DNA of 64,000 bases. Source: an uncultured Gemmatimonadota bacterium. Lineage in GTDB: Bacteria; JAAXHH01. Under the pieces are notes generated by a model. It was not told the origin of the DNA. It did no database searches and saw only the letters and a program-made list of their open reading frames with translations. Below, piece after piece: positions 5,560 through 17,360 of this stretch; positions within the stretch are counted from its first letter, which is position 1, and every line of letters starts with the position of its first letter. The position numbers and the translations under genes were made by a program. Where the stretch lies: NCBI GenBank assembly GCA_951812955.1, contig OX638340.1, positions 3,456,001-3,520,000 on the forward strand, read 5' to 3'.

Positions 5560-5797
5560 TCCGTGAACGCCGGCCGGGTGTTGACCTTTGACGTCCTGAT
5601 CTCCCAGGGTCTGGGGAGAATATGGCTACGCCAACCACAAACTGGTGCGCAGCCTGATTAAATCGCTCCGCCGCAAGATCGGTGACGACGCGCGCACTCC
5701 GGACTACATCCTCAACGTGCGCGGGGTCGGGTACCGAATGGCCCGGTCCGTGGAACTCAATGTGGAAACTCTAGCGCGGGATATCCCTGCGGTTTAA
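5560..5797 (+). pseudogene. C-terminal fragment of an OmpR-type winged-helix response regulator (paralog of the 3' ends of 14414..16807 and 30881..33259)
   Basis: The nucleotide and peptide match 16580-16807 (...NAGRV.TFD.LI.Q VWG.YGYANHKLVRSL.KSLRRKIGDDAR.PDYI.NVRG.GYRMAR...). A 1-nt insertion (cagggtctgggg vs caggtttgggg) shifts the frame, and everything upstream of the winged helix is missing. Confidence 0.6.
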
Positions 5798-5849
5798 TGC
5801 ACCTGGTGCGGATGACCTCGCTCCGCTCTGCAGATCAGGTCCATAAGGC

Positions 5850-6227
5850 TCACTCCCGGCCTTCCGTCAACGCCCTGACCTCCCCCTCCACGCGTCCAAG
5901 CCGCTTGTTCATTGCATGTATTTCCACCTGGATGGCTGCATGCTCTTCGCGCATCTCTTCTCTGATGGCGGCGTGCTCTTCGCGCATCTCTTCACGCATT
6001 GAGGTGTGCTCTTCGCGCATCTCTTCTCTGATGGCGGCGTGCTCTTCACGCATCGCATTTCTGAACGATAGGAATTGCTCCTGCATTTCCGTCCGAAACG
6101 ACCGGAATTCCTCTCGCATTTCGATGCGCAGTTCGCTGGTGGGTTGCCTGGTCCAGGTGATTACAGCAAAAACGAGGATGCCGACGGCCGCCAGCGCCTG
6201 GATGAATACGATCAGTTTCTGATACAT
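5850..6227 (-). CDS. small membrane-anchored coiled-coil repeat protein (XhlA/DUF1640-like motif), 125 aa
   Basis: N-terminal TM helix LIVFIQALAAVGILVFAVITW, then heptad-like REEF/REEH repeats including four exact in-frame 33-bp (11-aa REEMREEHAAI) tandem units. The C-terminus AMNKRLGRVEGEV is shared with ORF 16848..17093 (RMDKRFDTLEKKV) and with several remnants. It is divergent from the LRR gene at 6924. Confidence 0.6.
   Translation of the reverse strand: MYQKLIVFIQALAAVGILVFAVITWTRQPTSELRIEMREEFRSFRTEMQEQFLSFRNAMREEHAAIREEMREEHTSMREEMREEHAAIREEMREEHAAIQVEIHAMNKRLGRVEGEVRALTEGRE
5937..6068. repeat. 4 tandem near-identical 33-bp units (in-frame, encoding REEMREEHAAI repeats)
   Basis: Direct reading shows gcgtgctcttcgcgcatctcttctctgatggcg repeated 4x with 1-3 substitutions each. 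Confidence 0.85.
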
Positions 6228-6325
6228 TCCGTTCCTCTCTACCGTTCCTCTTTATCGTACCTCTCTACCGTTCCTCTTTATCGTTCCTCGTCCACAGTTC
6301 AGTACGATTGAAGAAACCGGATCAC

Positions 6326-6400
6326 ACCCCGTACGCCGCATCCGATACACCGCATCTCATACGCCGTATTCCGTACACCGCAACCCCTACCGCCTCCCAT
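6326..6400. repeat. array of degenerate 13-14-bp direct repeats (CGCATCCSWTACRC-like)
   Basis: ccgtacgccgcat ccgatacaccgcat ctcatacgccgtatt ccgtacaccgcaa cccctaccgcctcc. The same repeat flavour occurs at 33345-33473 (gcgcatcccttac gcgtatccctctcc...). Confidence 0.6.
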
Positions 6401-16807: not shown

Positions 16808-16847
16808 GGCGCTCCGTGAGTCTGTAACGATTACAGATAAAGACTGG

Positions 16848-17093
16848 CTATCGTTCAAATATATGGTCCACCTTCTTTTCCAGTGTATCAAAACGCTTGT
16901 CCATACGTGTAAATCCAGCGTCAACCTTCTTTGCAAGATCGCCATGTCTTAATTCAACTGTCCTTATCCTTGTTCCGATTTTATCATGCGCTTCATCGGC
17001 ATTCGCCACGATGCGCTTTTCCATCGCATCGAGTGCTTCAATTAGCTCTTTCTTGGATACACTCGGTGGGCTACCCGGTCCACTATAAGCCAA
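16848..17093 (-). CDS. small coiled-coil protein (XhlA/DUF1640-like), 81 aa
   Basis: The coiled-coil C-terminus TRIRTVELRHGDLAKKVDAGFTRMDKRFDTLEKKVDHIFER shares the M[ND]KR[LF]..[VL]E..V motif with ORF 5850..6227. GC is lower than surrounding genes. It is convergent with the regulator gene 14414..16807, mirroring the arrangement at 5560-6227. Confidence 0.5.
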   Translation of the reverse strand: MAYSGPGSPPSVSKKELIEALDAMEKRIVANADEAHDKIGTRIRTVELRHGDLAKKVDAGFTRMDKRFDTLEKKVDHIFER

Positions 17094-17169
17094 TTCAATT
17101 CCCCTTTCTAACCAATGTATTTAAACAGGCATATATCGACACCATATCGGTATATGACATGTATATGCT

Positions 17170-17360
17170 ACATAAGGAAATCAACTCTCCACGCGTTCGA
17201 GCCTTCTGTTCATTGCGTTGAATGATCAATATTCAACCCAGTTCGACACACCTGTTATTGGTTATAGTCGGAATCCAATCCGGAATCTCGAACGTTTTTT
17301 AAAAATAATGTTAAAAAGTTCCGTTACCTCGTTCCTTCGTCCAAAGAACATCGGGCGAAC
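17170..17360. repeat. composite AT-rich element: small-gene C-terminal remnant (FNAMNRRLERVES*, minus) + TAGTCGGAATC + CTCGAACGTTTTTT...AAAAAGTTC + decayed LRR-gene leader
   Basis: The revcomp of 17181-17222 reads FNAMNRRLERVES*. 17195-17245 aligns to 13720-13765. The palindrome is GAACGTTTTTT...AAAAAGTTC. The tail gttacctcgttccttcgtccaaagaacatcgggcgaacatcc is a paralog of 13830-13870. Confidence 0.65.

Follow-up and report, generated by a model that had tools for sequence, protein, structure and literature searches.

A variable region of genes for predicted leucine-rich-repeat lipoproteins between conserved acs and thiolase genes in an uncultured Gemmatimonadota bacterium

Gene content of the window

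We analysed a stretch of 64,000 nucleotides from an uncultured Gemmatimonadota bacterium (NCBI GenBank assembly GCA_951812955.1, contig OX638340.1, positions 3,456,001 to 3,520,000 of the forward strand), referred to here as the window, in which genes for leucine-rich-repeat (LRR) proteins, a small membrane coiled-coil gene named smallA, and a hybrid sensor kinase/response regulator gene, hybB, lie between an acs-like gene and a thiolase gene. An earlier, sequence-only reading had seen here a recurrent three-gene unit, formed by a hybrid regulator, a convergent small coiled-coil gene and a divergent LRR lipoprotein gene, which was present as copies A, B and C at different stages of decay and was proposed to be functionally coupled. 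Our analysis shows that the pieces of this triad are real, but that they are debris of repeated duplication, insertion and deletion and not a conserved three-gene machine. The acs-thiolase region (3.85-17.5 kb), together with the site behind the paralogous regulator gene hybC, is in our judgement probably a flexible island of eukaryote-like LRR surface lipoproteins.

Gene order in the window was taken from the listing of open reading frames (ORFs) and from Pfam scans, and remnants were identified by sensitive self-BLAST and tblastn searches. Eleven related loci from about ten genomes, designated below by L numbers, were compared using called genes, tblastn and blastn. The closest relatives of the window, with one genome per species scanned, are metagenome-assembled genomes (MAGs) that, by their record titles, are sponge- or coral-associated and were deposited as "Latescibacterota" or "Gemmatimonadota"; we infer that the source genome is also associated with a sponge or coral host. 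Across the relatives, a backbone of the form lactonase-acs ... hybB ... thiolase-LptD can be recognized. In the window, the lactonase gene (447-1517, + strand) and the acs-like gene for an AMP-binding enzyme (1527-3848, +; Pfam AMP-binding, E 1e-45) form the conserved left flank, and their synteny is kept in L004, L005, L006, L030, L032, L037, and L040. The conserved right flank is the thiolase gene (17537-18658, +), whose product is 87-97% identical in amino acids across the relatives, followed by a gene for an LptD-like protein (19315-21801, -). No two of the related genomes examined are alike in what lies between acs and thiolase.

Six LRR genes are present in the 64 kb, with Pfam LRR_8, LRR_14 and LRR_4 matches in six ORFs, and their products consist of plant-type 24-residue repeats behind lipoprotein-type signals. 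Three of them belong to the acs-thiolase locus: a predicted lipoprotein of 391 residues with two Big_2 domains and LRRs (4168-5343, +; signal ...LSTCGKDS), an LRR-metzincin of 1608 residues (6924-11750, +), likewise a predicted lipoprotein, and a predicted lipoprotein of 523 residues (11943-13514, +), already on record as a called gene, which is a paralogue of the other two and is 77-81% identical in nucleotides to positions 6897-8781. According to self-BLAST, the LRR paralogues are 65-81% identical, and chimeric genes are present. In all LRR proteins the signal ends in (S/T)(T/S)CGKDS after a hydrophobic stretch, the threonine at position -1 being unusual for a lipobox. A near-identical signal, (S/T)(T/S)CGKDS(P/S)T, with a proline-rich linker is encoded by the genes beginning at 4168, 6924, 11943, 34537 and 41799, by the LRR gene at 52382-54145(-), which has neither a hyb nor a smallA partner, and by the gene at 46815-52364(-) for a CARDB/metzincin protein of 1849 residues. 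The common signal and linker suggest an export or surface-exposure signal that may have been swapped among surface proteins.

Copy A and the smallA family

All four parts that the sequence-only reading had assigned to copy A were recovered: a response-regulator 3' fragment, an intact small transmembrane (TM)/coiled-coil gene, a repeat-rich intergenic region and an intact LRR-metzincin gene. The regulator fragment (5545-5785, +) corresponds to the winged-helix C-terminus of a hybB-type protein (residues ~715-794), read in two frames with 75% amino acid identity in tblastn, and its part at 5545-5767 is 82% identical in nucleotides to the 3' end of hybB at 16556-16777 (E 3e-57). Because it is frameshifted near 5605-5625, it is a pseudogene fragment. 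Its identity to the orthologues of hybB in other genomes is 78-86%, so that it is no closer to the local hybB than to these and is not a recent local copy. The LRR-metzincin gene starts with an ATG at 6924 and encodes three Big_2 domains, three LRR blocks and an M66-like domain in which the motif HExxHxxGxxH is intact (HELGHNMGLLH); the match to Pfam M66 (PF10462) reaches 23.6 bits at a cut-off of 20.6, with partial coverage. Orthologue-like genes are found in L006 (45% amino acid identity) and L030.

The smallA gene (5850-6227, -) is intact and encodes an N-terminal TM helix, 11-residue repeats, which appear in the DNA as 3.8 copies of a 33-bp repeat (5931-6054), and the C-terminal motif MNKRLGRVEGEVRAL. 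AlphaFold2 predicts a TM helix at residues 2-26 and a long helix at residues 31-124, with a mean pLDDT of 83. A total of 47 homologues was found among 5.8 billion clustered proteins, and all seven whose genomic contexts were inspected fall in the same neighbourhood. In the alignment of the family, the N-terminal hydrophobic helix is followed by 11-residue repeats varying in number from none, in a 59-residue copy from L032, to about eight, and the C-terminal NxRLGRVEG is nearly invariant. smallA is a lineage-restricted, multi-copy gene for a small membrane coiled-coil protein, has its own conserved upstream region, and is confined to this lineage and neighbourhood, in which it occupies at least three slots. 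Conservation of the ORF as a protein, with its invariant C-terminal motif, argues for a gene with a function of its own and not for a mere recombination site.

Searches of smallA against Pfam and NCBIfam gave only coiled-coil matches below threshold. A profile search with the smallA family yielded 3226 matches, nearly all restricted to the repetitive helix in several stretches; about ten were full-length relatives, and the remote matches that were sampled are CCDC90-like at or below threshold. The small genes had also been labelled XhlA-like, and this label was not borne out: neither smallA, nor smallB (the small gene of copy B, described below), nor 37 family members matched PF10779 at E values up to 0.01. 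In XhlA, the coiled coil is N-terminal and the TM helix C-terminal; the TM helix of smallA is N-terminal, and smallB has none.

Three remnants of smallA were located in the window, all on the minus strand. The first, at 3868-3988, is a C-terminal stub that runs into the tail of the upstream element described below (TTCTCGAACTTTTT, ~3945-3960); its portion at 3868-3945 is 81% identical in nucleotides to 5825-5902 (E 3e-13) and its translation 54% identical to smallA residues 100-125, and the same stub with its leader recurs upstream of an LRR gene of L032, LRR412, with 92% nucleotide identity. The second, at 5434-5499, encodes the N-terminal TM helix (68% amino acid identity to smallA residues 3-24; E 1.9e-5 with the smallA profile). 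The third is another C-terminal stub, at 17187-17219, which encodes NAMNRRLERVE (HAMNKRLGRVE in smallA) and corresponds to the second small-gene remnant that had been proposed for copy B. Judged by eye, about 26 of 31 nucleotides of this stub are identical to 5885-5915, and it joins the smallA upstream region at a shared motif, GTTCATTGC, present close to the 3' end of the coding sequence of smallA as well as in its upstream region. This is the pattern expected after a deletion between short repeats.

The element upstream of smallA and LRR genes

The intergenic region between smallA and the LRR-metzincin gene (6228-6923) has a GC content of 0.41, compared with 0.58 for the whole window, and contains 13-bp repeats (4.7 copies), 14-bp repeats (3.6 copies) and repeats of about 90 bp (four copies). 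The 13-bp repeats (6229-6289) and the 14-bp CGCATCC-type repeats (6332-6382) lie in the smallA 5' untranslated or promoter region (6229-6394), which has homologous counterparts in the relatives. The 13-bp repeat just 5' of the smallA start holds the Shine-Dalgarno-like sequence GAGAGGAA, so that the putative ribosome-binding site of smallA is repeated in tandem 4-5 times, as against about twice in relatives. The repeats of about 90 bp are four tandem copies of an upstream element (6395-6758, +; core AGTCGGAGTCCAATCCGAATTCTCGAACTTTTTT; nhmmer E 1e-14 to 1e-22).

Further copies of the element were found, all in plus orientation. A single one lies about 55 bp 5' of the 523-residue LRR gene (11836-11886; nhmmer E 2e-6). 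Two others are orphans and correspond to the partial unit at 13617-13870 and the decayed LRR leader of copy B in the sequence-only reading: a geneless smallA upstream region with element and LRR-type leader at 13724-13879 (E 2e-7; the element itself at 13761-13821), and an element with LRR-type leader before thiolase, without an LRR gene, at 17244-17364 (E 1.5e-8; the element itself at 17244-17306). Positions 13724-13879 and 17208-17364 are 77% identical (E 4e-25), 11843-11920 and 17261-17337 are 76% identical, and both orphan leaders resemble the sequence just 5' of the LRR gene at 11943. Nearly all the features listed by the sequence-only reading, among them the regulator fragment, the smallA stubs, the orphan leaders and the paralogous regulators, were recovered with sound statistics by self-BLAST and tblastn.

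The element precedes all three LRR genes of the locus, in the case of the 391-residue gene as the tail fused to the smallA stub, and nhmmer did not find it elsewhere in the window; LRR genes outside the acs-thiolase locus are without it. Relatives whose smallA belongs to the sub-family of this locus have in common a stretch of some 200 bp 5' of the gene. The last part of this stretch is the element of 60-90 bp, in which a T-run comes after the core AGTCGGAGTCCAATCCGAATTCTCGAAC. Every one of these relatives has the element beside smallA (two instances each in L006, L030 and L032, one each in L038 and L040), and in L003 it lies between hybB and thiolase although smallA is absent. Hexamer-like direct repeats about 11 bp apart are found within the element, the 14-bp direct-repeat arrays adjoin it, and one promoter-like site falls within its first copy. 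Comparison of the aligned copies revealed no conserved hairpin. A LexA-type box, CTGT-N8-ACAG, was considered and rejected, as it occurs in element copies 1 and 3 only and is not kept in other copies or genomes. Since the LRR genes of the locus sit behind the same element, they are probably co-regulated with smallA by a factor that reads the element, and this factor might possibly be hybB.

Copy B, copy C and the hybrid regulators

The proposal for copy B held for its regulator, which is intact, and for the presence of a coiled-coil ORF; the relationship of that ORF to smallA could not be upheld. smallB (16848-17093, -), on record as a called gene, encodes 81 residues without a TM helix and occupies the slot held by smallA in other genomes. 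The idea that it is a diverged smallA was not borne out, as no significant BLAST match was obtained and hhalign aligned RMDKRFDTLEKKV with AMNKRLGRVEGEV at a probability of 0.7%. smallB is weakly similar to a 93-residue gene of L040, which itself lies behind the same element and a smallA stub, and shows no similarity to the 87-residue gene in the same slot of L033. Unrelated coiled-coil genes occupy the hybB-thiolase slot in different genomes (window 16848-17093(-), L033 545-808(+), and smallA in L005, L006, L032 and L038), and they vary in having an N-terminal TM helix, no TM helix, or the opposite strand. In L037, a small coiled-coil gene with a C-terminal TM helix is located after acs.

The hybB gene (14414-16807, +) encodes an intact protein of 797 residues with the Pfam architecture GAF-PAS-HisKA-HATPase-REC-Trans_reg_C, the last an OmpR-type winged helix-turn-helix domain. 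The H-box SHELRAPL, the DD pair, the conserved REC aspartate and the KPF motif can be read in its translation, its matches in the PDB include MtrA, KdpE and HK853, and the protein is cytoplasmic, without a TM segment. Its paralogue hybC (30881-33259, +) shares 52% identity over 786 residues and the same seven-domain architecture. In both proteins all two-component Pfam domains score above cut-off, so that both qualify as hybrid kinase/response regulators. Orthologues of hybB are 82-86% identical in amino acids and are placed between acs and thiolase. hybB, which in L003 and L004 lies directly beside thiolase, is a backbone gene. Regulation of neighbouring genes by hybB is quite possible; those that stay beside it across genomes, however, are acs and thiolase and not the LRR genes.

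Copy C contains the parts that had been listed for it, namely the paralogous regulator, 13-bp repeat arrays, a cadherin-like lipoprotein gene and the gene for an LRR protein of 2410 residues, but neither a smallA remnant nor the upstream element was found in it by BLAST and profile searches. Three 13-bp tandem arrays 3' of hybC (33342-33476) are unrelated in sequence to the arrays at 6229-6382. They are followed by the gene for a Big_9 (cadherin-like) predicted lipoprotein (33474-34205, -), kept beside hybC in the sister genome, and by a 9.5-kb insertion (34215-43767, +) with two LRR genes, encoding 2410 residues (34537-41769, +) and 551 residues (41799-43454, +). Neither of the orthologous loci L033 and L035 contains the insertion; in the sister genome, hybC and the Big_9 gene are followed by 350 bp in place of the 9.5 kb of LRR genes. 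All that copy C has in common with copies A and B is the regulator paralogue and an LRR gene. Homology between the small genes of the three copies was not borne out: smallB and smallA give no BLAST match, and the gene in copy C is an unrelated Big_9 gene.

Relative to the sister locus L033, the window has a second insertion at 26440-30458, which carries a Calx-beta/autotransporter-like gene of 1153 residues. A segment near its end (29940-30042) is 80% identical to 43500-43602, just past the 9.5-kb insertion.

Gene order in related genomes

The related loci differ in which members of the proposed triad they contain. L004 reads acs, 1.3 kb, hybB, thiolase; L003 has hybB, element, thiolase; and L038 has hybB, smallA(-), element, thiolase. 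The order in L005 is acs, hybB, smallA(-), amine oxidases, and a second, inverted hyb beside LRR genes. In L006, acs, a smallA stub, hybB, smallA(-), element, an internal hyb fragment, an LRR-M66 gene, smallA(-), element and thiolase follow one another. L032 begins with acs, two reverse-strand genes (collagen-like and LRR), hybB, smallA(-), element and LRR412, and continues with the 59-residue repeat-less smallA(-), element and thiolase. The sister species, represented by L030 and L033, has a common backbone 79-96% identical in nucleotides to the window, with most blocks at about 94%; its order is acs, smallA(-), element, LRR-M66, smallA(-), element, a gene of 1113 residues and hybB, followed on the other strand by the unrelated 87-residue membrane coiled-coil gene, and thiolase. 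L031 contains LRR genes, a STAS gene, smallA(-) and thiolase, with no hyb in view. The smallA-type genes of L037 and L040 are flanked by NHL and amidohydrolase genes, and no hyb or LRR gene adjoins them; L040 also has an insertion of two LRR genes, between PhyH and rhaM, that lacks the module, by which we mean smallA with its upstream region and element.

The hyb fragment of L006 (13061-13186) corresponds to residues 533-574, at the kinase-to-receiver junction, and lies directly 5' of the LRR-M66 gene. It is a second, independent piece of regulator debris beside an LRR gene, from the MAG Plut_88884, whose name suggests the coral Porites lutea.

Of the loci compared, just L006 and L032 have the full triad, and the window retains a relic of it; at L003, L004, L005, L030/L033, L031, L037, L038, L040 and the hybC loci L033, L034 and L035, the triad is incomplete or lacking. 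These data bear on the functional coupling proposed by the sequence-only reading, in which the three genes would form a dedicated module: the cytoplasmic kinase-regulator would sense a signal through its GAF-PAS region and phosphorylate its own receiver, and its OmpR-type domain would bind the repeat arrays or the element in the divergent promoter, switching on smallA and the LRR gene together, in analogy with a Bacteroides hybrid two-component system that governs the surface-lipoprotein locus beside it. hybB is intact, with all phosphorelay motifs and the winged helix-turn-helix; the order hybB->smallA(-)<->LRR(+) is exact in L006 and L032; hybB is adjacent to smallA at five of the nine orthologous hybB loci; the element contains direct repeats and has the 14-bp arrays beside it; and both hybC of the window and the second hyb of L005 border LRR genes. 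Nevertheless, the partners are found separately. hybB occurs without smallA and LRR in L003 and L004 and without an adjoining LRR gene in L005 and L038; smallA with its element occurs without hyb in L030 (after acs) and L031 (after the STAS gene); the divergent smallA relatives of L037 and L040, between NHL and amidohydrolase genes, are without the element; and the LRR genes outside the locus do not have it either. The adjacency of hybC and LRR genes is missing at all three loci with a hybC orthologue, L035 having no LRR genes and L034 an unrelated neighbourhood. Moreover, the hybB family comprises thousands of members, with several paralogues per genome, also in lineages without such neighbours, and acs or thiolase are equally plausible targets of hybB. 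We therefore consider a dedicated module unlikely. Of the adjacency that had been claimed, the pairs hybB->smallA and, in this locus, smallA<->LRR stand; the triad as a whole does not.

Module-flanked LRR genes and a strain-level deletion

In L006, L030 and L032, an LRR gene is bracketed by two smallA modules in direct orientation, which are 73-89% identical over 300-490 bp. With its stub and leader, the cassette of the 391-residue LRR gene in the window matches the LRR412 cassette of L032 at 92% nucleotide identity; the L032 cassette lies downstream of hybB, its counterpart in the window upstream. Such arrangements could reflect an evolved exchange of cassettes, in which a circle of one LRR gene and one module would integrate at, and be excised from, a resident module by homologous recombination, so that LRR proteins would move from slot to slot and from strain to strain, as a contingency system for interacting with the host. 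The module-LRR-module order, the "empty" modules of L038 and L031, the different placement of the same cassette relative to hybB, and the replacement of smallA by smallB-type genes behind the same element in two slots (window and L040) are all in line with it. Yet tandem duplication and unequal crossing-over would give the same pattern without an evolved function, several LRR insertions are module-less (L040, copy C and window 52382-54145), the flanking copies are quite diverged, and the smallA protein is conserved, its C-terminal motif being invariant. Among the window ORFs of at least 150 residues, none was found to encode a recombinase, a transposase or a reverse transcriptase. An evolved exchange system appears distinctly improbable to us.

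A strain-level difference in the region was recognized in contig L001, whose hybB protein is identical to that of the window and whose DNA is 97% identical. L001 has 2,028 bp extra (L001 120-2147) at window position 13710/13714, and the window junction has GTTCC microhomology on both sides and falls right at the edge of the orphan element copy 13724-13879. A truncated 5' gene end of 35 codons (13617-13724, +) marks the left edge of the deletion in the window; the gene is intact in L001, with 387 residues. The extra sequence contains the rest of this gene, fragments of thiolase and acs of 40 bp and 80 bp, a fragment encoding an M66-type C-terminus of 122 residues, and smallA 5' untranslated-region repeats. 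Continuing birth and death of such units, or their cassette-like turnover, as suggested by the sequence-only reading, is supported by the variable acs-thiolase content, the module-flanked LRR genes and this strain-level indel.

The source of the sequence is a MAG and the region is rich in repeats, so that mis-joins at repeats had to be considered as the origin of the structures described. However, a contig from an independent assembly covers 13710-27255 at 92-97% identity and in the same order, several independently assembled relatives contain the same kinds of structures, and the repeats, being 70-82% identical, are too diverged to collapse or mis-join. We regard an assembly artefact as highly implausible.

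The reading that we favour is that of a flexible island, within which LRR genes would be gained, duplicated, recombined and lost. The smallA modules of about 0.6 kb and the similar 5' ends of the LRR genes could serve as substrates for unequal or homologous recombination, and short microhomologies such as GTTCC and GTTCATTGC could serve as substrates for illegitimate deletion; together, these processes would yield the "copies at different stages of decay". Fragments of hybB would be by-products, because hybB borders the hotspot, and each LRR gene landing behind a module would inherit the same promoter-proximal element.

Several points weigh against this view. LRR genes lie beside hyb paralogues (hybB and hybC of the window, the second hyb of L005, L006 and L032) more commonly than one might expect. 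Recombination at the modules is deduced from the arrangement of the genes, and the events may have begun with duplication or with import from another lineage. A scan for consensus promoters and terminators gave results not above those of shuffled controls.

A further conjecture would combine several of these ideas: the smallA module may be a portable promoter and recombination unit that swaps LRR cassettes among a few chromosomal slots and from strain to strain, and places the resident cassette under the neighbouring hybrid sensor-regulator. We give it little credence; if true, symbionts of sponges and corals would have, in such a portable unit, a contingency system for their host-facing proteins that works without a recombinase.

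Other features of the window

An Rfam scan of the whole window gave no matches. A 33-bp tandem duplication is located at 17430-17496, about 40 bp 5' of the thiolase start codon, and 2.9 copies of a 351-bp tandem repeat lie inside the CARDB gene (50665-51674). Two proteins with collagen triple-helix repeats are encoded at 23067-24599 and 25418-26452, the second being fused to a trypsin-like protease; collagen-repeat genes beside hybC are kept in the relatives, and their repeat regions differ between strains.

Comparison with known systems

In the literature searched, no description of the local architecture, the smallA family or the element was found. Individual components resemble known families and systems. 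In the hybrid two-component systems of Bacteroides, which are encoded beside polysaccharide-utilisation loci, the protein is anchored in the membrane, its sensor is periplasmic and lies between TM helices, and its output domain is of the AraC type. Like these, the hyb proteins are single polypeptides that combine a kinase, a receiver and a DNA-binding output, and their genes adjoin those of surface lipoproteins, but the hyb sensors are GAF/PAS domains and the output is Trans_reg_C, neither an AraC domain nor a periplasmic sensor domain having been found by Pfam, and the adjacency is not conserved here. Residues 32-177 of hybB (14507-14944) align over the whole domain with the GAF-A domain of Mycobacterium tuberculosis DevS/DosS (E 1e-23). 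hybB has L, F, A and M where DevS has its heme ligand H149 and its pocket residues Y171, E87 and H89 (numbered by way of the E87A and E87G mutant chains), which makes a heme or gas sensor of the DevS type unlikely, and this candidate was rejected.

The best Pfam match of smallA is the CCDC90-like/DUF1640 family (PF07798), to which 24 of 37 family members match, the best with E 9.5e-8. However, smallA itself scores 26.2 bits at a cut-off of 33.5, the matches cover the repetitive helix only, and smallA differs in its N-terminal membrane helix and private C-terminal motif NxRLGRVEG. The 1608-residue protein resembles StcE/M66 proteases in the HExxHxxGxxH motif and the above-threshold Pfam M66 match, but the match spans about 85 residues around the active site, and the N-terminal 1150 residues consist of Big_2 domains and LRRs; no PDB sequence relatives of the M66-like domain were found. 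As in integrons and shufflons, one class of genes lies between direct repeats at a fixed site. In contrast to these, the cassettes carry their own leaders and the repeats are gene-containing modules of 0.3-0.6 kb instead of short attachment sites. Integron, shufflon or diversity-generating-retroelement-type diversification was rejected, as neither a site-specific recombinase nor a reverse transcriptase is encoded among the window ORFs.

Sponge-associated Latescibacterota MAGs are reported to encode LRR and other eukaryote-like proteins (PMC12993501). The locus shares with LRR expansions of sponge and coral symbionts an expanded LRR family and nearest genomes that are sponge or coral MAGs; it differs from them in the repeated small-gene module and element before each LRR gene, in the bordering hybrid regulators, and in the fusion of one window member to an M66-like metzincin. 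With surface-protein islands and multigene families it shares a strain-variable content at a fixed chromosomal position. The locus does not establish a new kind of system; it fits two known phenomena, namely expanded and fast-evolving families of eukaryote-like LRR proteins among the symbionts of sponges and corals, and surface-protein islands that vary between strains. It adds two undescribed pieces, the smallA protein with its variable repeat number and the conserved cis element, which are candidate regulators or partners. LRR eukaryote-like proteins are thought to mediate host-symbiont recognition in sponges and corals, and the route of their diversification is poorly documented. The locus is a well-delimited example, a fixed site between conserved metabolic genes at which LRR genes differ by species and strain, with identifiable recombination substrates and deletion junctions.

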